A DNA stretch of 23,401 nt from Bdellovibrionota bacterium (lineage in GTDB: Bacteria > Bdellovibrionota_C > UBA2361 > JBGSMV01), in NCBI GenBank assembly GCA_041739995.1, contig JBGSMV010000012.1, positions 1-23,401 on the forward strand, given 5' to 3'. The translations under genes were made by a program, and so were the position numbers. Positions 1 through 22,140 of this stretch are shown here, in pieces. The stretch's first letter is position 1; every line of letters begins with the position of its first letter. A model generated the notes under the pieces. The model ran no database searches, was not told where the DNA came from, and saw only the letters and a program-made list of their open reading frames with translations.

Positions 1-1
1 T

Positions 2-1534
2 GACGCACTCACGGCTGAGTACAATCGCATCGTCGGCACCACTACGTTCAACAGCAATAGTCTTTTGGGGCCCGGTTTTGATCGCCTCAGAATTCAAGCC
101 GGCTTCGGCATCGATGGAAGCTTGAGCTTTAACGTGGGAGAGCATACCAAAACTACCAAGGGCACTGGCTCCTTTTCTTCGGCGGGCACCTTCGCCCTTG
201 CAACAAGCGCCGACAAAGTAGTCATGGTTGACGTTAATAGTGACGGAATTCTCGATCTTATTTCAGCTGCCTCGAACGGAGCAGGTGGCTCCCTCCAAGT
301 AAAGCTCGGCATCGGCGATGGAACTTTCGCGGGGGCGGCATCGCTGAGTGATACATTTGGAGGCAGTTACGGCGGTTCTCCAGTGGATATCATAGTTGAT
401 CAGGTGAACGGCTCAGGCGGGGTAGACATCCTTCTGATCATGAACAACATCGTCTCAGGAAATAGTGACGTCTGGCTGTACTCTGGAAATAATAACGGAA
501 CCTTTGCCGCCGAAGTTAGCGTGGTAAACACCAGCAGTGGGTCCAGTCGGTATAACAGCATGGCTTACACCGACTTCGACGGTGACGGGATAAAAGATCT
601 GATCGTCAACGATGACGGGGACTTCGGCGCTGGAGAAATTAACGTCCTTCGTGGTTCCGGCACGGGAACCTTTGCCTCTCAATTGGTTATCTCAAACCCA
701 TACTCAAACATTACGATCGCTGATTTCGATGGTGACGGGGTAAAAGATATCGGAGGTCTAAATAGCGGTGGCACCTTCCAGGTACTGAGGGGAAACGGCG
801 GTTTTTCTTTTGGCTCTGCGATTTCCACCACTCTCGGCTCAGCCGGCACTTCCGTCGTAGCGGGCGACTTCAACCGAGATGGAATACTAGATATCGTCAC
901 CACTCATGCAGGCACGGTTGATGTTCGTTTCGGAAGTGGTGATGGTACTTTTGGTGCCGCCACTTCATACAGCGTCACGGCCGGATCCTCGAAGGACGGA
1001 ATTAAAATGGCAGATATGAATGGTGATGGGATAACTGACCTAGTCACCAACTCAAGGGTGCTGTTCGGCAAGTCGGACGGCAGTTTCGAGAGTCCTGTCA
1101 CCTACGCCGGCTCAGGTATTTTTGCGTTGGGAGATACCAACGGTGATGGAGTGACGGATATCTTCGCAAGCACTACCTCTTACCTTCAAAGCACCGAAGA
1201 GAATGCAAACTCGCAGTATTTCACTTTGTCTACTGCAGAAGACGCGAGAGATGCGATTGACCTAATTGACGCGATCTTCGAAAGAGTCGCACTTGAGAGA
1301 GGTTCGATTGGAAGCTCGCTGAGTCGCCTTTCCAGTGCCCTGAACACCACCAGCTCCACCGCCCTCAACTACACTGCTGCGGAATCGTTAATTCGAGACG
1401 TTGATGTCGCCGCTAGTACTGCGGCGCTAGTACGGGAACAGATTCTGCAACAAGCCACCGCCGCCATCTTGGGGCAAGCCAATCAGGCACCAGCACTGGC
1501 CCTACAACTCCTTCGAATCCAAAGCTCCTCCTGA
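2..1534 (+). CDS. fliC: Flagellin-family protein with about 7 FG-GAP/VCBS repeats in the hypervariable region (5' end outside window)
   Basis: The frame is open from nt 2: DALTAEYNRIVGTTTFNSNSLL...RLRIQAG matches the end of the flagellin N-domain. The C-terminus ERGSIGSSLSRL...AAESLIRDVDVA...ILQQATAAILGQANQAPALALQLLR matches Flagellin_C. The centre has DVNSDGILDL, DQVNGSGGVDI, DFDGDGIKDL, DFDGDGVKDI, DFNRDGILDI, DMNGDGITDL and DTNGDGVTDI. Confidence 0.92.
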   Translation, partial: DALTAEYNRIVGTTTFNSNSLLGPGFDRLRIQAGFGIDGSLSFNVGEHTKTTKGTGSFSSAGTFALATSADKVVMVDVNSDGILDLISAASNGAGGSLQVKLGIGDGTFAGAASLSDTFGGSYGGSPVDIIVDQVNGSGGVDILLIMNNIVSGNSDVWLYSGNNNGTFAAEVSVVNTSSGSSRYNSMAYTDFDGDGIKDLIVNDDGDFGAGEINVLRGSGTGTFASQLVISNPYSNITIADFDGDGVKDIGGLNSGGTFQVLRGNGGFSFGSAISTTLGSAGTSVVAGDFNRDGILDIVTTHAGTVDVRFGSGDGTFGAATSYSVTAGSSKDGIKMADMNGDGITDLVTNSRVLFGKSDGSFESPVTYAGSGIFALGDTNGDGVTDIFASTTSYLQSTEENANSQYFTLSTAEDARDAIDLIDAIFERVALERGSIGSSLSRLSSALNTTSSTALNYTAAESLIRDVDVAASTAALVREQILQQATAAILGQANQAPALALQLLRIQSSS

Positions 1535-3065: not shown

Positions 3066-5006
3066 ATGACTTTCCTTGAGTGGTTCTCTTTTAGTCACGC
3101 GTCGCTGCTCGCATTCTTCGTCCTACCGTTTGCCGTGTACGCCTACGGTGCCACATTCTGGTACATGCCGCTTCGTGTACGAATTTTTAACTGGTCTATT
3201 ATCGTCACTTCAGGCGTAGCGGTATTGCTCACGCTTATTGAACTAAAAAATATCGTCGTCGCTGGCACGCCCAATCTCGCTCTTCTTGGCGTCTTGCACT
3301 TAGGACCCCCTTTGCTTGCCATTTGCGCCATATTGCTCGATCCAAGGCCGGCTGGCTCAAAACGCTCTTCACGAGGCGACGGTTCACCTAAGCCGTATAA
3401 GGCCAAGTCTCTAAGCAAGCAGATTGAGCGCCTGTCCTGGGACGAACTAATTATAGGCGAGGATCTTAAACGTGAACTTAATTCTGTAGTCGACCTGCTC
3501 CGAGACCCCGACACGGCCGACCGCTACGGCATCGAAACACCAAAAGGCATCTTGTTCGCAGGCCCTCCGGGCACTGGGAAAACCACCATCGCCCGAGTAG
3601 TGGCCAGTGTAGCGGGGCTGCAGTTTTTTGCATTTCGCGCTGACGAGGTCGTGTCTAAGTGGGTAGGAGAGTCAGAGAAGAACCTCACAGGACTTTTCGA
3701 GTCGGCAGCCAAGGCATCTCCCGCTGTGATTTTCATTGATGAGATCGACGCCATCGGGCGCAAACGCTCAGACGCTCAGTCTGACTCCGGCGACAGTTTG
3801 CTTAACCACCTCCTACAGCTGATGGATGGGATTGTAAAAACCAGGGGGCTTTACATTATCGCCGCCACTAATAGGCCTGACCTAGTCGACGATGCGCTAA
3901 AACGTGCCGGACGCCTTAATCGCACAATTATGATTCCCCTCCCTGACCAGCAGGCCCGACAAAAACTCTTTGAACTTTACCTCAAGAATCTTTCTCTTCG
4001 CGGAGACGTGGACTTAGACGCGCTCACTAGAGCAACCGATGGGAGCTCTGCCGCTGATATTAAAGAGATCTGTAATCAGGCGGGTATTCACGCCTACCAG
4101 CGTGAATCTTCCCTGGGCAAAGACCAGCGCGAGTTCCAAGTGAGCTCTGAGGATATCGAAGCTGCGCTCGAAGATTTTGCCATTGAGGAAGATGACGATC
4201 TCACCGACGAACCAAAATCAGTCGGAGACCTGCGGCCCCTCAACAGCGAAGTTGAGCAAATCACTTGGAATGACGTCATCATCGATCCCGAGGTTAGATC
4301 CGAGCTCGAGTCCGTAGTTACCCTCCTCAAGGACCCTGGAAGTGCTCGCAACTACGGCATTGATGTGCCAAAGGGAATTCTTTTAAACGGCCCCCCCGGA
4401 ACCGGCAAAACAACTCTCGCTAAGATCATAGCCACCACGGCGGGGCTCTCCTTCTTTGTTCTAAAAACTGACGAGGTAATTTCAAAGTGGGTTGGAGAAT
4501 CAGAAAAGAACCTTACTCGCCTTTTCAAAGCCGCGGCGAAACATGCACCCTCAGTGATTTTTATCGACGAGGTTGATTCGATTGGCAAAAACCGCGCGGA
4601 AGGAAACGCGCAGCATGCCGACAACCTACTTAACCACTTGCTTCAGCTGATTGACGGCGTAATCAAGCGTGAAGGTGTCTATGTTATTGCGGCAACTAAC
4701 CGTGCTGACCTGGTCGACCCCGCACTGAAGCGCGGTGGTCGTTTGAATAAGGTCATTGAAATTCCACTTCCATCCTTAGAAGCTCGCAAACAACTGTTCG
4801 AACTTTATTTGAAAAAATTGCGTTTGAGCGAGCCGCCCGACCTCGACCATCTCGCTTCTTTAACCGAAGGAAAGGCCGCCGCAGACATTCGCACTATCTG
4901 CAATCAGGCAGGACTAAACGCATTTAAGCGAGAGTCTTCGTCGGGGTCCAGAGAGTTCATAGTTTCGTCCGAGGACCTGGACTCAGCGATCGAGGAACTC
5001 ACCTAA
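3066..5006 (+). CDS. Membrane-anchored tandem AAA+ ATPase (Cdc48/VAT/FtsH classic clade, no protease domain)
   Basis: About 3 hydrophobic segments in the first ~90 aa, then two AAA modules. Each has Walker A GPPGTGKT, pore loop KWVG, Walker B IFIDE and SRH AATNR.DLVD.ALKR.GRL. Confidence 0.9.
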   Translation: MTFLEWFSFSHASLLAFFVLPFAVYAYGATFWYMPLRVRIFNWSIIVTSGVAVLLTLIELKNIVVAGTPNLALLGVLHLGPPLLAICAILLDPRPAGSKRSSRGDGSPKPYKAKSLSKQIERLSWDELIIGEDLKRELNSVVDLLRDPDTADRYGIETPKGILFAGPPGTGKTTIARVVASVAGLQFFAFRADEVVSKWVGESEKNLTGLFESAAKASPAVIFIDEIDAIGRKRSDAQSDSGDSLLNHLLQLMDGIVKTRGLYIIAATNRPDLVDDALKRAGRLNRTIMIPLPDQQARQKLFELYLKNLSLRGDVDLDALTRATDGSSAADIKEICNQAGIHAYQRESSLGKDQREFQVSSEDIEAALEDFAIEEDDDLTDEPKSVGDLRPLNSEVEQITWNDVIIDPEVRSELESVVTLLKDPGSARNYGIDVPKGILLNGPPGTGKTTLAKIIATTAGLSFFVLKTDEVISKWVGESEKNLTRLFKAAAKHAPSVIFIDEVDSIGKNRAEGNAQHADNLLNHLLQLIDGVIKREGVYVIAATNRADLVDPALKRGGRLNKVIEIPLPSLEARKQLFELYLKKLRLSEPPDLDHLASLTEGKAAADIRTICNQAGLNAFKRESSSGSREFIVSSEDLDSAIEELT

Positions 5007-5035: not shown

Positions 5036-5107
5036 TCTCGCCACGCTCGCTGAGCTCTTTGTCAAAATTTATTCAATTACACAATGAGTTCAGCGAGACC
5101 AACGAGA
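5036..5107. repeat. Long imperfect inverted repeat between convergent genes (possible bidirectional terminator)
   Basis: CTCGCTGAGCTC (5046-5057) pairs with GAGTTCAGCGAG (5086-5097), with an outer TCTCG/CGAGA pair and an AT-rich loop. Confidence 0.5.
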
Positions 5108-5174
5108 AAGACGCTTAAATGAACTTTTGACTGAGAGCCCCGGCAGAAGGTGAAAAAAGTCTTTGACAACCATA

Positions 5175-6053
5175 CTAGACGGACCCAAGCTCAGCATTTC
5201 GAGGAATCGCATCTGCTGCCCCTGGCCTTGCCACACATAGCGAGGCTGCTTTGGCGCCGCGTTCAAGGCACACCGCTGGTGGACACCCTTCAAACAAAGC
5301 CGACATGAAATATCCCAAAAAGGTGTCGCCTGCCGCCGTGCTATCGACCACATCGACTGGCAACGCTTGCTGCAAAAGCATCTCACCGTTCGCCACATAT
5401 ATCGACCCACGCTCGCCCAGTGTCGCAACAATCTCAGTGCTGGGCAGCAGCTTGTGCAGATATCGCAACCCGGGCTCTGCCATGGAGTGCCCAGAAAGCT
5501 GCGCAAGCTCGCGCTCATTCACAAAAAGGTAGTCAATAGCTCCAAGCGCATACTCTTTCACTTCATCAAGCATTGGTGAAGGGGTGAACACAATCTGCAT
5601 TCCTCGAGCACGACCTTCCTTGATAAACTCATTCACTGAACTAATTTCGTTCTGTAACACAAGCACATCACCGGTAGAGCAATTCTTGAGCAGTTGTTTG
5701 GGGTCTTCAGGAACGAAGGTGTGGTTTGCCCCCGCAAACAATAAGATGCTGTTGTCGCCCGAGTCCGTGACTTGAATGACCGCGTGTCCCGTAGGGCCAT
5801 CGACATAGGCACAACCACTGGTGTCGATCTGCTCTCTGTTAAGGTGCTCGATGAGGACCGTCCCATCAGCGCCTACCCTTCCAATAAATGAAACTTGAGT
5901 TCCCGCGCGCGCCAGCGCGATGGCCTGATTAAGGCCTTTGCCGCCACAGAAAACTTCTCGGCGAGTAGCCGCTAAAGTCTCCCCGTCACGGACGAAATGG
6001 GGGACCTTATAGACCAAATCTAAGTTGGCAGATCCGCAACAATATACCTTCAT
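5175..6053 (-). CDS. rbsK: Ribokinase (PfkB family)
   Basis: GSANLD, GGKGLNQAIALARAG, LQNE, FVNERE, DSTAAGDTF. Confidence 0.92.
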   Translation of the reverse strand: MKVYCCGSANLDLVYKVPHFVRDGETLAATRREVFCGGKGLNQAIALARAGTQVSFIGRVGADGTVLIEHLNREQIDTSGCAYVDGPTGHAVIQVTDSGDNSILLFAGANHTFVPEDPKQLLKNCSTGDVLVLQNEISSVNEFIKEGRARGMQIVFTPSPMLDEVKEYALGAIDYLFVNERELAQLSGHSMAEPGLRYLHKLLPSTEIVATLGERGSIYVANGEMLLQQALPVDVVDSTAAGDTFLGYFMSALFEGCPPAVCLERGAKAASLCVARPGAADAIPRNAELGSV

Positions 6054-9127: not shown

Positions 9128-10477
9128 TTAATTAAGCAAAAGAAGCGCTAACTGTGGTTGGATGGTGGCTTGCGCGAGTATCGAGGCCCCGACTTGCTGC
9201 AGGATTGAGAAACGTGTGAGCGCAGCACTCTCTTGAGCGACATCAGCATCTCGAATGCGACTTTCAGCGGCAGCGTAGTTCTCTCCCGATGTCCTGATTA
9301 CTTCCACCGCAGCGCCTATCCTACTTTGCGAAGCTCCAATTTGTGAGCGCTTATCATTCAAAAGATTCAGTAGCGACTGAAGTGAATCAAGCGCGTTGAG
9401 TGCCGATTGTTGAGTGAGCAATCAAAAACCTGTTTGAGCAAGTGACTCGGTATAAGTTGTGGTAACTACCTGGAGTTGCGTGTCTTGAAGTTCAACCAGA
9501 AAACTTCCCACATCTCCTGTGACTCGATCGGTTACGTTGTCGCCATTGAAGTCATAGACTCCCGTCGAGAAGGTAAAGTTAGTAGGGGCCTCCACCGTAA
9601 AGGGACCTCCAAGGAGATTAAAAAAGGCAGGATTATTAAGAAATCCAACGAGCCCGCCGTTCCCGCCATCGGCAGAAAATTCCACGGAGTTGCCGACGAT
9701 CTCCGCTTGAAAGTTGCTGAGCCCTCCACCAGCGAGCGCCATTAGTTCCTCAGCCTGCTTAGTTAGTCCACCCACCCCACCATAATAAAGCTCAATTCTC
9801 AACTGCAAAGTGCCATCAACGAACTCATCAAACACCAACAAATCATCGAATCCATCATTGTTGAAGTCGCCTGCAACCATTTCTGCCTCGGTCAATGGAG
9901 AGATTCCACTCACATTCAAATTGAAGTTTGTGTCTCCATTATTATAGGTACCCAATCCTACTGCCTGCGAACTAGTGGAACTACTTTGCTCGAGAAATTG
10001 TGCTATCAGGATTGCATTAATGCCAGAGCCGGCTTGAAGCTGAAGTTTTGCATTGCTTCCGTCAAGGAGGCGAAGCCCGTTGAAGGAAACACCTTCAAGC
10101 AGTCTCTGGTATTCATCCGCAAGTTGCTGCGCCTCACCATTGATCACACTGCGTTGGCCAGTTGAGAAGATTCCATTTGAAGCCTGCTCCGCGAGTTCCC
10201 GCTGGCGAGTTACAATTTCAGTCAGCTGCGCGATACTTTGATCCGCAATTGACAGAGCTGAGATTCCGTCGTTTAGGTTTCGTAACGCCTGGCCAAGAAT
10301 TCGTCTCCCCGCCTCTAAGCCAGAGGCGACCGCAAGACCTGCGGCATCGTCTGAAGCACGATTGATTCGCTGGCCGCTACTAAGGCGCTCGGACACACGA
10401 CCAAGCGCCTCACTCGAGTGAGCGAGCGAGCGCTGCGTACGCAGCGCGTAAATGTTCGTACCTAAAGTAACAGGCAT
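9128..10477 (-). pseudogene. fliC: Second flagellin-family gene with FG-GAP-like insert, interrupted by one in-frame TGA (9422-9424)
   Basis: MPVTLGTNIYAL...ERLSSGQRINRASDDAAGLA is Flagellin_N. The centre has GDFNNDGFDDL and YDFNGDNVTD. After GGT TTT TGA the same frame continues LLTQQSA...RSQIGASQSRI...AAESRIRDADVA...QPQLALLLLN, which is Flagellin_C. Confidence 0.85.
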
Positions 10478-17425: not shown

Positions 17426-18829
17426 CTAAGCCTTAAGAACTTCCAGATGGAGCCGGGCCCTCTCAAGCAATCCCTCCCGGGTATTCAGGTCTGGGTTCTC
17501 TATCACCAACTCCTCACAACCCCTAAGAAAGTCCCCCATGGCAACTCCAGGTTCAAACCCAATTTCCATGAGATCTCGCCCCCCAATCGCAAGGCGATCG
17601 CCCTGCGCTGCTATTCTCTCATGTTCCTTGAGAACCATCTGGTCAAAGCGCTGAAGCGAAGCCTCCACTTCACTGGTCGACATGACTGGAGGCGCATCGG
17701 CAAACTTAAACACCCTCCAATCATCATAGAAGGGATCCACATCCCGCATTATTCTTCGCACTCCGGCCGGCCCACATTCTAGTGGTCGCATGTGCATGCG
17801 TACAACTCGAGTAACTCGCTCGGTCTCATCCCGCGAGAATCGCAGTCGCTCCATCACCGAACGCGCAATGCGACTGCTCACCACTTCATGTTCGTAAAAG
17901 TGTCTTCGCCCGTCTTTGCCGGTTGAAATAGTCGCGGGCTTTCCGCTGTCATGAAACAGCGCTGCAAGGCGTAGCGCAACATCAACCGGACAACGCTCGA
18001 TGACCGACAAGGTGTGCTCGAAAACATCTTCGGTGTGAAACTCATTCTGCTCAACGCCGCTCATTGTAAGCAGCTCAGGTGCAACCTCCGCGAGTATGCC
18101 TAAACGTCGCATGGCTCTTAGCCCTTCAGCCGGCTGCTTGGAAATCAGAATGCGCTTCAATTCAGAATTAATTCTCTCTGGACTTATTCGGGCCAGAAGT
18201 CCCACGAGTTCCGCACAGGCACTTTCAGTTCGAGCGTCAGTCGAACGACCAGCGGCTGCACCAAAACGAATCATGCGCATTAAGCGCAGCGGGTCTTCCC
18301 GGAATCTCTCAGCAGGCTCACCGACTGCGCGTAGAGTTCCGTTCCCAAGGTCATCTAGCCCGCGCTGAGTATCTACAAAGCGCCGTTCCTTTAGGTTAAC
18401 GGCCATGGCGTTGATGGTGAAATCTCGTCCCTGAAGATCTTCTTCGATCGTACTAGCAAAATTATTCTCGTGATGGGGACCAGCATGTCTAAAAGTCGTG
18501 AGCTCTACATGCATACTGGAGAGCACTATCGTAACTGTTCCGTGCTTTACTCCCGTCTCCACCACGCGGATATCATTCTTCCCGCACCGGCTCACCACTT
18601 CGTCCGGTGAAAGCCGCGAAGCCAGGTCAAGGTCATGCGGCGTCTGGCCTGTGGCAATCTCCCGCACCGAACCACCGACCATGTGGACATCAGCATCATC
18701 GCCGAGCGCGCGAAGTAACGGAGCAAGTTCTCCTGCTGAGACCACAGCGAGACACTGAGAGACTATTTGCTCTTGGCTAAGAAGAAGCGACCCTGAGGAA
18801 CAGGTGCCATGAGATCGGGATGTTGCCAT
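17426..18829 (-). CDS. cca: Class II tRNA nucleotidyltransferase (CCA/CC-adding family) with HD domain
   Basis: VGGSVRE..PHDLDLAS, GVKHGTV, ELTTFR, EDLQGRDFTINAMA, RFREDPLRLMR, SPERI; HD domain QNEFH.EDVFEHT...FHDSGKP...FYEHE. The start is uncertain because of the overlap with the HNH gene. Confidence 0.88.
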   Translation of the reverse strand: MATSRSHGTCSSGSLLLSQEQIVSQCLAVVSAGELAPLLRALGDDADVHMVGGSVREIATGQTPHDLDLASRLSPDEVVSRCGKNDIRVVETGVKHGTVTIVLSSMHVELTTFRHAGPHHENNFASTIEEDLQGRDFTINAMAVNLKERRFVDTQRGLDDLGNGTLRAVGEPAERFREDPLRLMRMIRFGAAAGRSTDARTESACAELVGLLARISPERINSELKRILISKQPAEGLRAMRRLGILAEVAPELLTMSGVEQNEFHTEDVFEHTLSVIERCPVDVALRLAALFHDSGKPATISTGKDGRRHFYEHEVVSSRIARSVMERLRFSRDETERVTRVVRMHMRPLECGPAGVRRIMRDVDPFYDDWRVFKFADAPPVMSTSEVEASLQRFDQMVLKEHERIAAQGDRLAIGGRDLMEIGFEPGVAMGDFLRGCEELVIENPDLNTREGLLERARLHLEVLKA

Positions 18830-19289
18830 TGAGACGCATTGTAAGTACGGGCAACCAATCCGGTCGCACAGGTTTTTTCAGTAGTATCATTCTCGCTTCG
18901 GCTGGTGTTCGTCCGCCCTTTCGGCGATTACACGAAGCGCAACAGCACACGAGGTTATCCCACAGAGTCTTTCCACCGCGACTACGCGGAAGTACGTGAT
19001 CTAACGTCGCCTCTCTAGTTGAAAGCGCTGTAGAGCAGTACTGACACTGGAAATTATCTCGAGCGAGTATATTACTTCGGCACAAAGGAGGCGACTTTCG
19101 GCCAATACTCACAAAGCGGAGCAATCGCACCACGGCGGGTGCGCGGATGAAAAGCGATACAGAGCGGATGTGGTGGTCATATTCTTCCACCACTTCAATC
19201 TTACCCGTGAAGAACATCGTAACGGCACGTTGCCACGAAATCACCTTCAGAGGCTCGAAACTCGAGTTCAGAAGCAGAACAGGCTGCAT
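18777..19289 (-). CDS. HNH endonuclease (McrA-like)
   Basis: VLLLNSSFEPL, RDNFQCQYC, TLDHVLPRSRGG..WDNLV.CCASCNRRKG.RTP.EA. Confidence 0.92.
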   Translation of the reverse strand: MQPVLLLNSSFEPLKVISWQRAVTMFFTGKIEVVEEYDHHIRSVSLFIRAPAVVRLLRFVSIGRKSPPLCRSNILARDNFQCQYCSTALSTREATLDHVLPRSRGGKTLWDNLVCCCASCNRRKGGRTPAEARMILLKKPVRPDWLPVLTMRLNGNIPISWHLFLRVASS

Positions 19290-20973: not shown

Positions 20974-22140
20974 TTAACGTCGACGCTTCTGTCCACTTGG
21001 TGAGCTACGCATTGATTCAAGCATGCGAGCGACTTCCTCAGAGCGCCTCTCGGTGTAGCGCATCGTAACTTTCACATCTCCGTGTCCAAGCGCCTGAGAA
21101 ACAAGCCGAATATCTCCGCTGTGATCGAGCAGTTCAAGCGCAAATGTATGTCGAAGCAGATGAGGATGAATGCTTACTTCTTCGGACAGTCGATTGACAA
21201 GCCGCCACAGACTCTTTGCTCCAATCGCGAAGCTCTCCAGCTTCGAAGCACTCGCACCGTAGGTACTCACAAACAGTGCGAGCTTATGATCGGTCGTAAG
21301 TTTTAGTGGCGAAAAGAACTTCTTCAGTTCAACTTCCCGGGAGACAAGATAATCGCGCAACATCGGCCTCAAAGAGCTAGGGATATACACGTTACGAAAG
21401 CGACGCCCCTTGGTGCGCACCGTCTCAAACCATTCGAGCTTCTCGTCGAGCTGCTCGCGCCTCATTAGACGCAGTTCATCTGCGCGCAGCCCCGTTTCCA
21501 AAAGAGTGAGTACTAGCGCTTGATCGCGCAGGGTTTTAAATCCAGGCTTCTCCGCGACCCACGCCTTCGCCTGTTTCTTTAGAGCTGCGGTCTGTGCCTT
21601 CGTCAGTGCTTTCGGACGAGCAGTTTCAATCTTCGGCCCACGCACCTCGCGAGCGGGATTGGTAAATCCAGGAACTCTGTCCGCCAAGGTACGTCCCAGG
21701 TGCTTGATCGTGGCAAGCCTGCGCGCCACAGAAGCCGGAGCCTCTCCGGAACGAATGCGGGCATCAATAAAGCGCTGTGTGGCCGACTGATTCCAATCAC
21801 CAACCCGCACACGCCTAACATCACGCGCCGCAGTGAGCTCCTGCATGAAAGCGAGGAAAATTTTTAAATCAGTGCGCTTCGCGCGCGCGGTGTGAGCAGA
21901 CCCCATGGCGTAAAAGCGACTATAACTTTCAACTACCTCCAGCAACGCCATGTCATCGACAGAAGATCGAGCGCGCGTGTCTGAGAAGAGATTCCTCACA
22001 GGCACTTGCGCTTTTGACCTACTGCCGGGGCGTTTTTTTGGCTTGTCGCTCACCCCATAAGCTTTGGAAGCCTGGCGTACTCTGTCAAGAGAGGCGTTTC
22101 GCATGGATTGTCTCAGCAGGACCCATCTGCGAGACTGCAT
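20974..22140 (-). CDS. Tyrosine recombinase (XerC/D / phage integrase family)
   Basis: SVARRLATIK, LETGLRADEL, TKG, HPHLLRHTFA, LGH, TMRY (complete R-K-H-R-H-Y set). The true start may be ATG 22104 or GTG 22053. Confidence 0.9.
   Translation of the reverse strand: MQSRRWVLLRQSMRNASLDRVRQASKAYGVSDKPKKRPGSRSKAQVPVRNLFSDTRARSSVDDMALLEVVESYSRFYAMGSAHTARAKRTDLKIFLAFMQELTAARDVRRVRVGDWNQSATQRFIDARIRSGEAPASVARRLATIKHLGRTLADRVPGFTNPAREVRGPKIETARPKALTKAQTAALKKQAKAWVAEKPGFKTLRDQALVLTLLETGLRADELRLMRREQLDEKLEWFETVRTKGRRFRNVYIPSSLRPMLRDYLVSREVELKKFFSPLKLTTDHKLALFVSTYGASASKLESFAIGAKSLWRLVNRLSEEVSIHPHLLRHTFALELLDHSGDIRLVSQALGHGDVKVTMRYTERRSEEVARMLESMRSSPSGQKRRR

Follow-up and report, generated by a model that had tools for sequence, protein, structure and literature searches.

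A flagellin-family gene with a predicted seven-bladed FG-GAP propeller in a Bdellovibrionota genome, and its diverged set of paralogs

The first open reading frame (ORF) of the window, the name used here for the whole stretch of 23,401 nucleotides (nt) analyzed (Bdellovibrionota bacterium, assembly GCA_041739995.1, contig JBGSMV010000012.1, positions 1 to 23,401, forward strand), very probably encodes a flagellin-family protein whose D0/D1 helices flank a seven-bladed FG-GAP beta-propeller with six canonical calcium-type loops. The assembly comprises 3.81 Mb in 81 contigs and is 91% complete; it is referred to below as G000 and the window contig as C54. G001 is a genome of the same genus, and X1 to X4 are sequencing runs whose contigs were aligned to the window. 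An initial annotation had described the ORF as a flagellin carrying an FG-GAP domain in place of D2/D3, and had proposed an adhesive flagellum for the recognition of prey, hosts or surfaces. The observation was confirmed and the structural reading was supported, while the interpretation as a whole found partial support.

Results

Domain content and predicted fold

The first window ORF (2..1534, plus strand) had 510 amino acids (aa) and an open 5' end. In the Pfam search of this 510-aa window protein, FG-GAP_3 (E 2.4e-37, 127.8 bits, cut-off 26.9, in seven stretches), FG-GAP (E 3.2e-16, 59.2 bits, cut-off 22.1) and Flagellin_C (E 4.3e-13, 49.8 bits, cut-off 23, aa 419-504) all scored above their cut-offs, in line with the initial annotation. 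Flagellin models also led the NCBIfam matches (best score 74.4 bits), all of them under the full-length cut-offs, which is what a fragment whose middle is foreign would be expected to give. Other identities were rejected. The hook-associated protein FlgL reached 34.2 bits against an NCBIfam cut-off of 127.2 and was weaker than the flagellin models; the HExxH motif of enzymatic flagellins was absent from the 510 aa; and no WD40 family appeared among the Pfam matches at E ≤ 0.1, the repeats being of the FG-GAP type.

A loop of the D.[DN].[DN]G..D type occurred six times (aa 77, 191, 241, 289, 338, and 378; nt 230-1159), while in 2000 shuffles of the window protein it occurred 0.05 times on average and never more than twice. 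Seven DxxxDGxxD-like repeats had been reported at the outset; the count holds for the blades, whose loops are six canonical ones and one degenerate loop in blade 2 rather than seven alike (Table 1). The G.GDGTF-like turns reported to follow several of the repeats were recovered as six GxGDGTF-like turns, at aa 103, 162, 218, 264, 311, and 356. The insert itself, first put at about 330 aa, had to be extended, the propeller covering about 350 aa (aa 54-402).

The AlphaFold2 (AF2) model covered the 510-aa window protein, without the first ~116 residues of the gene product, which lie on another contig, C80. Its predicted local distance difference test score (pLDDT) was 87 and its predicted template modelling score (pTM) 0.80, with beta-strands from aa 51 to 401 and a single long helix at aa 412-509. 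The underlying alignment had 65 rows, namely the window protein, 58 of the 63 full-architecture homologs described below and six paralogs from the window genome; row P0080 is probably that genome's own copy on contig C64. In a Foldseek search of the PDB, the top match of the model was UmbA4 bound to teichuronic acid (9oee_A, E 9.6e-12). The N-acetylglucosamine (GlcNAc) lectins PVL and AAL-2 were found at E about 2e-11 to 8e-10 and TMt 0.56-0.58 (5mb4: E 1.9e-11, TMt 0.58), and the TcB propeller, CRTAC1 and integrin alpha chains came next. Fold similarity to solved propeller lectins is therefore present in the Foldseek results, and the model and the fold matches together are in favor of the earlier view that the insert would fold as a seven-bladed FG-GAP propeller between flagellin helices. 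When two copies of the propeller (aa 50-405) were examined for self-association, the score was 0.00 (mark 0.42), which is evidence neither way.

Reconstruction of the gene across two contigs

Window aa 1-53 aligned with the end of the N-terminal flagellin region in full-length homologs. Conserved flagellin sequences had been said to flank the insert at both ends; in the window this is so for Flagellin_C, and only the last ~50 aa of the N-terminal region are present, the rest being on C80. The reverse strand of C80 (2794 nt) ends with exactly the first 141 nt of the window. The overlap is in frame and is unique to C80 among the contig ends of the assembly, and the C80 frame shares 46 residues with the window ORF in the same phase. 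End overlaps of 141 nt numbered 16 in the assembly, both directions counted, so overlaps of this length are a feature of the assembler. Flagellin_N was found on C80:3-488 (minus strand) with 108.2 bits (cut-off 26.6), as had been expected of the missing 5' part; its assignment to the window gene depends on the join between C80 and C54. From the overlap, the C80 part and the window ORF are predicted to form a protein of about 626 aa.

The contigs of the sequencing runs also cover this region. One contig of run X4 (1235 nt) matched window 1-536 without a difference and continued for 699 nt further upstream; part of this overhang resembles the N-terminal region of the second window flagellin described below. 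In the pieces listed over the FG-GAP flagellin gene, no contig of the four runs differs from it at more than one position; one of these contigs reaches across the contig end. The parts of the gene are collected in Table 1.

Table 1. Parts of the FG-GAP-propeller flagellin gene. Positions are those of the window unless C80 is given; aa numbers refer to the 510-aa window protein.
Feature	Position	Strand	Basis
3' part of the FG-GAP-propeller flagellin gene (510 codons + stop)	2..1534	+	ORF list, Pfam, C80 overlap
First ~116 codons of the gene, GTG start	C80:3-488	-	Flagellin_N 108.2 bits
End of N-terminal D1 region, aa 1-53; helix aa 2-13, short beta-strands aa 29-43	2..160	+	AF2 secondary structure
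Seven-bladed FG-GAP (integrin-alpha-type) beta-propeller, aa 54-402, at the place of D2/D3	161..1207	+	
Calcium-type loop, blade 1: DVNSDGILD, aa 77-85	230..256	+	Motif scan; loop class conservation 0.75
Degenerate loop, blade 2: DQVNGSGGVD, aa 134-143	401..430	+	In register with other blades; outside canonical pattern
Calcium-type loop, blade 3: DFDGDGIKD, aa 191-199	572..598	+	Motif scan
Calcium-type loop, blade 4: DFDGDGVKD, aa 241-249	722..748	+	Motif scan
Calcium-type loop, blade 5: DFNRDGILD, aa 289-297	866..892	+	Motif scan
Calcium-type loop, blade 6: DMNGDGITD, aa 338-346	1013..1039	+	Motif scan
Calcium-type loop, blade 7: DTNGDGVTD, aa 378-386	1133..1159	+	Motif scan
C-terminal D1/D0 helix, aa 412-509	1235..1528	+	AF2 helix
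Flagellin_C match, aa 419-504	1256-1513	+	Pfam 49.8 bits; same place in genome search

Sequence divergence and its location

In G001, the best match of the window protein was 40% identical, and in genomes of the same family the identities were 35-44%. A search for orthologs of the window protein in G001-G004 at E ≤ 1e-60 found none, and the matches came from a repeat at 1e-15. Leucyl-tRNA synthetase (LeuRS) was 76% identical in G001 and 69% in G003, and a short flagellin of 287 aa was 74 and 80% identical, respectively. When 21 FG-GAP flagellins from five genomes of the family were compared all against all, best matches lay at 34-44%, whether they came from the same genome or from another, apart from one pair at 51%. 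Their maximum-likelihood tree was star-like, with a median tip length of 0.96 and good support for only 3 of its 18 inner branches, and the copies clustered by genome no more than under shuffled labels. In the few supported or nearly supported cross-genome pairs, identity was 57-58% in the N-terminal core, 44-64% in the C-terminal core and 29-49% in the propeller; within the window genome, mean identity was 31% for the propellers and 48% for the C-terminal core. Either the rate of change of the copies is several times that of housekeeping proteins, or each species has retained a different subset of an old pool, and on either account the FG-GAP flagellin set turns over.

Conservation, expressed as 1 minus normalised entropy over the 65 aligned sequences, was highest in the calcium-type 1-2 loops and the GxGDGTF 3-4 loops (0.75 in both), followed by the D0/D1 core (0.60), the strands (0.41), the 2-3 loops (0.39) and the 4-1 loops (0.37). 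Insertions and indels were confined to the columns of the strands, 2-3 loops and 4-1 loops. In integrin propellers, the 1-2 and 3-4 loops share one face, and the opposite face, which binds the ligand, carries the 2-3 and 4-1 loops.

Flagellin paralogs of the window genome

Searches of the window genome gave 24 Flagellin_N and 24 Flagellin_C matches, in 32 stop-to-stop frames that correspond to about 27 loci. A count of propeller-bearing paralogs, which the initial annotation had recommended, gave nine of these loci with FG-GAP above the Pfam cut-off: one each on C27, C38, C49, and C50, two on C64, the C80/C54 gene, a frameshifted copy on C42 and a fragment on C36. Five further loci were short flagellin-family genes (265-340 aa), and several others had different inserts. 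Contigs C38, C49, and C50 (3.2-5.6 kb) consist mostly of one FG-GAP flagellin gene each. Flagellin loci that are frameshifted, interrupted by stops or cut by contig ends were seen at C42:107618-109496, C42:109855-111790, C79:156580-158003 and C41:84118-85104, and at the ends of C46 and C55. Evidently, flagellin paralogs break the assembly, and some of them may be pseudogenes. By eye, several copies have GTG or TTG as the start codon.

A second flagellin lies in the window at 9131-10477 (minus strand), with Flagellin_N at 109.7 bits, Flagellin_C at 65.4 bits and faint FG-GAP traces only. It carries one in-frame TGA at 9424-9422. In one contig of run X2, a G for C at 9423 turns this codon into TCA (Ser) and leaves an intact frame of 449 codons; X1 and X3 keep the stop. 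The TGA is either a polymorphic nonsense codon or a low-depth error.

A second propeller-type flagellin, of 622 aa, was found at G000:C22:86973-88841 (minus strand; locus L029). Its insert of ~350 aa had only a sub-threshold PD40 match (E 0.014), and the model (pLDDT about 80-93) matched TolB (TMt 0.41-0.43) and propellers of the DPP-IV and WD40 types in Foldseek. Among 5.8 billion proteins only 8 others were found to match it, of which two were 73% and three about 40% identical, and G000:C42:109855-111790 (plus strand; locus L039) is a frameshifted relative of it. As far as the available part of their table goes, Fields et al. (2024; Nat Commun 15:9500, PMC11532411) list PD40 flagellins in clusters 167, 184, and 627 only, from other phyla and mostly much longer.

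Distribution of FG-GAP flagellins

Among the 120 database matches listed, 63 combined Flagellin_N, FG-GAP and Flagellin_C; they measured 551-879 aa, were 33-40% identical to the window protein and came under the names Bdellovibrionales or Deltaproteobacteria. The family profile matched 38 of the 41 close genomes at E ≤ 1e-40. Full-length intact copies (best match < 1e-140, mostly over profile positions 1-620) were present in 26 of the 41, and up to 33 profile matches were obtained per genome (G013), tandem arrays included. Over the whole phylum, 56 of 124 genomes had a full-length copy at E ≤ 1e-120, many of them several copies. Matches at this threshold were found in 31 of the 73 high-quality genomes and in 39 of the 64 genera, all belonging to the class of the window genome; the scan scored 10 candidates per genome at most, and each of its copy numbers is to be read as "at least". 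An alignment scan of genomes seeded on the conserved flagellin N-terminus retrieved mostly ordinary flagellins, with 3 of 77 loci at full length.

A search of the representative library with the FG-GAP flagellin alignment returned 102,410 representatives at E ≤ 1e-30. The best 150 of these 102,410 were giant multi-propeller FG-GAP proteins of 1026-7386 aa, which are not flagellins, and therefore this search gives no count of FG-GAP flagellins. What the search does show is that the FG-GAP propeller is a very widespread module. Giant non-flagellin proteins with several FG-GAP propellers, in open frames of up to 3898 aa, were also observed in the same lineage (G013:C14 and others), and giant multi-propeller proteins are candidate sources of the flagellin insert.

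Flagellar machinery and regulation

A flagellar export apparatus, on which the proposed role of the protein had been made to depend, is encoded in the window genome (FlhA, FlhB, FliI, FliH, FlhF, FlhG, a FliA-like sigma factor, two FliD and one FliS), and C36 holds a cluster with the order fliI-fliH / flhB-flhA-flhF-flhG-fliA-like sigma factor. FHIPEP genes (FlhA/SctV type) numbered three (847, 585, and 438+80 bits) and were located on C36, C47, and C5. The match of the C5 copy is split into two stretches of a single 632-aa open frame, and only the C36 copy was seen in a flagellar cluster. Given three export-gate genes, more than one type III system may exist; another flagellar system is conceivable, and so is an injectisome.

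An FG-GAP flagellin fragment without the N-terminal domain (G000:C36:11826-12797; L129:5827-6798) is situated about 8 kb from the fliI/flhA cluster and adjoins a GT1-family glycosyltransferase. At G000:C68:11652-14000, FliS adjoins a large methyltransferase-domain protein. Both the glycosyltransferase and the methyltransferase-domain protein are possible flagellin-modification genes.

With respect to regulation, a sigma-28-like motif was identified 93 nt upstream of the start on C80. Strict sigma-28 patterns matched 1 of 18 flagellin upstream regions. A looser pattern, which was defined after inspecting the sequences, matched 7 of the 18, as against 293 of 3081 background regions (9.5%). The data sets listed with matching sequence included none of RNA.

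Other genes of the window

The FG-GAP flagellin gene has as neighbours genes for an iron-trafficking protein, an extracytoplasmic function (ECF) sigma factor, a double AAA ATPase, PfkB, a nucleoside hydrolase and LeuRS. The protein with two AAA domains (646 aa) is encoded at 3066-5006 (plus strand). Further along, an HNH endonuclease gene at 18777-19289 (minus strand) overlaps the end of a CCA-adding/poly(A) polymerase-like gene, and a tyrosine integrase gene is found at 20974-22140 (minus strand). At about 5062-5111 the contigs of all four runs break and then run on into several different sequences. This zone lies between the end of the AAA ATPase gene (5006) and minus-strand frames (a 142-aa frame at 5090-5518 and PfkB at 5175-6053), which suggests a repeat or a strain-variable junction.

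Discussion

Proposed function and the points that weigh against it

In the reading that we prefer, the FG-GAP flagellin would be exported by the flagellar type III apparatus and would polymerize through D0/D1, so that each subunit would display one propeller on the filament surface; incorporation into the filament is, in our judgment, probable. The 1-2 loops of the calcium type and the GxGDGTF 3-4 loops, both conserved, would maintain the fold, probably with the help of calcium, and a ligand-binding face would be formed by the variable 2-3 and 4-1 loops. The most likely ligands would be glycans or other polymers on the surface of cells or substrata, proposed by analogy with the nearest non-integrin folds, which bind carbohydrates. 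Propellers of this kind could make the filament adhesive, and the many deeply diverged paralogs of each genome might constitute a repertoire of binding specificities. The complete chain, from export and polymerization to surface display and ligand binding, is offered tentatively, as plausible rather than probable. In this regard, the lectin or adhesin role for prey, host or surface that had been suggested from the outset is consistent with the evidence and may prove correct.

Several points weigh against this proposal. The gene is split over two contigs, and its join depends on a 141-nt overlap and on one bridging contig that is known by alignment. It is set among housekeeping genes, outside any flagellar operon. 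Since several paralogs are interrupted (two on C42, those on C79 and C41, and the one at window 9131-10477), not every copy need be functional. The term lectin draws on fold and variability, and a shared fold would not by itself imply a shared function. The sigma-28-like motif upstream of the gene is weak and its pattern post hoc; it is at best suggestive and was not used as support. The Bdellovibrio flagellum is reportedly sheathed by a membrane, and if the same were true here the propellers would not be exposed. Additionally, the family is so far known as sequences, and we know of no cultured member of the lineage.

The proposal can be taken further, to a filament that acts as a programmable recognition organ. 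Fast-evolving FG-GAP flagellins, figured at 5 to more than 20 per genome, and a few of the TolB/PD40 type, would be combined as a mosaic or expressed alternately, and would provide a bet-hedged, lectin-like repertoire for the glycopolymers of prey and surfaces. Such a filament would parallel the diversified UmbA lectins of umbrella toxins, or the receptor-binding proteins of phages. We regard this extended form as unlikely.

Alternative explanations

The alternative that survives best accepts the protein as a true filament subunit and takes the propeller to be mainly structural, a bulky calcium-stabilised layer that thickens or stiffens the filament in viscous biofilm or hot-spring settings. 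Divergence and paralogs would then reflect escape from flagellotropic phages, grazers and other enemies that recognize surfaces. In the portions available, Fields et al. (2024) consider outer domains as modifiers of filament diameter and of viscous-media motility, and treat the propeller as a rigid scaffold (PMC11532411). The star-like tree with its long tips, the lack of clustering by genome and the 35-44% identity fit an arms race as well as they fit ligand diversification, and the metagenomes with matching DNA are labelled hot-spring and biofilm. However, the closest solved non-integrin folds are carbohydrate-binding propellers, and conserved calcium loops combined with variable other loops are the signature reported for a propeller lectin in the available part of its description (PMC13274773). 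We consider a mainly structural role somewhat unlikely; it must be noted that the structural and the ligand-binding readings can both be true.

In another alternative, weaker than the structural or protective layer, D0/D1 would serve only as an export or docking signal. The product would be a soluble or cell-associated lectin-like factor, or would form a short specialised segment, and the bulk of the filament would be made of the short flagellins of 265-288 aa. It is in favor of this possibility that the short flagellins, which have no outer domain, keep orthologs (74% in G001 and 80% in G003), while within the genomes of the family no two FG-GAP copies are more than 51% identical and, even for the closest cross-genome FG-GAP pairs, identity in the core is only 44-64%. 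The three FHIPEP genes, with possibly more than one type III system, point in the same direction. Against it, the full-length matches to Flagellin_N and Flagellin_C far exceed the Pfam cut-offs, and in conservation across the family these domains rank second (0.60); a mere export signal would require less. Filaments built of several flagellins are also common in other bacteria, according to the abstracts listed. On balance this explanation appears improbable. Finally, an assembly chimera or a decaying pseudogene without a functional product would agree with the position of the gene at a contig end and with the frameshifted, truncated or stop-carrying sister loci (two on C42, C79, C41, and window 9131-10477), but deserves very little credence given that the 510-codon frame is open and is predicted to fold with high confidence, that the listed pieces of contigs from four runs differ from it at one position at most, that one of these contigs crosses the contig end, and that the overlap with the end of C80 is unique and in frame.

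Returning to the filament-borne propeller, its consequences would be considerable. The number of subunits per flagellum is roughly twenty thousand according to the available text of Fields et al. (PMC11532411). If the propellers are on the filament, each flagellum would carry about twenty thousand calcium-loop propellers, which would be a new route to an adhesive or armoured flagellum. The many copies, the near absence of orthologs between congeneric species and the division into conserved and variable loops make this family well suited to the question of why bacteria maintain many flagellins. For the window alone the result is modest; the behavior of the family and the second propeller type on sister flagellins are the aspects most worth following.

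Comparison with known systems

The propeller of integrin alpha chains (alphaIIb, 8gcd_A; alphaV; alpha5) belongs to a membrane receptor paired with a beta subunit, whereas the window propeller sits inside a flagellin, and we know of no beta-subunit-like partner for a flagellin propeller. The calcium-type loop is present in six blades of the window propeller; in integrins such loops occur in only some blades. The propeller lectins PVL (2bwr, Psathyrella velutina), AAL-2 (4tqj, Agrocybe) and UmbA4 (9oee, Streptomyces) are the best Foldseek matches (E 1e-11 to 1e-9), with a sequence identity of 19-21%. According to the available part of its description, UmbA4 is a lectin that recognizes teichuronic acid on target cells and belongs to a diversified lectin set that serves in the recognition of glycopolymers on the surface of other bacteria and is interpreted as bet hedging (PMC13274773). 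It is described there as six-bladed and as part of a secreted toxin particle, in contrast to the seven-bladed window propeller. Its blade core and calcium-type loops are conserved and its sugar-pocket positions have diverged (PMC13274773), the same split as in the FG-GAP flagellins, in which calcium-type loops are kept and other loops vary.

Among flagellins, those of Salmonella (FliC, 9gnz), Escherichia coli O157:H7 (7sn4) and Geovibrio thiophilus (9au6) have the same D0/D1 helices and the same insertion point for the outer domain, and they were the top Foldseek matches of the C22 sister flagellin, through its core. From what is available of Fields et al., the outer domains of solved flagellins are mostly immunoglobulin-like or other small folds (PMC11532411), unlike the propeller here, and no propeller outer domain occurred in the solved filaments among the matches listed. 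In flagellinolysin-type flagellins (cluster #15, "flagella_HEXXH", in the available table, PMC11532411) a folded domain likewise replaces D2/D3 between D0/D1; the window insert differs in having another fold, no HExxH and no predicted catalysis.

The closest precedent is cluster #55 of Fields et al. (2024), in which 16,948 AlphaFold flagellin models were sorted into 682 outer-domain clusters. As far as the available text and table show, this cluster has 40 members, with outer domains listed at 282-407 aa; all 16 of the Pfam-labelled members (545-670 aa) combine Flagellin_N, Flagellin_C and FG-GAP_3, and these 16 are from metagenome-assembled genomes of uncultured Deltaproteobacteria, "Pseudomonadota", Alphaproteobacteria, SAR324 and Bradymonadales (PMC11532411). 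The window protein has the same architecture and size, with Flagellin_N/C, FG-GAP_3 and an outer domain within ~280-410 aa, and is only 33-40% identical to its database relatives. In one sentence of the text the fold of cluster #55 is named "WD40-repeats", with the role of a rigid scaffold; the table, as available, gives FG-GAP_3 for the cluster and no WD40 or PF00400 entry anywhere (PMC11532411). By Pfam and fold search, the window propeller is of the FG-GAP/integrin type and not WD40. Among the papers listed, judged by titles and the beginnings of abstracts, our literature search found FG-GAP or propeller flagellins only in this one, the covered part of which gives no per-genome copy number, absence of orthologs or loop conservation (PMC11532411). 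The finding is consequently less unusual than first thought, since the architecture is in print and common in the lineage; the FG-GAP flagellin architecture is already catalogued, and the window gene is one more member of that type. What is new here is the number of nine FG-GAP loci among the roughly 27 flagellin loci of the window genome, the spread over 56 of 124 genomes of the phylum, the identity of only 35-44% within and between genomes where LeuRS (76%) and a short flagellin (74%) retain orthologs in G001, and the opposition of conserved calcium-type loops to variable ones.

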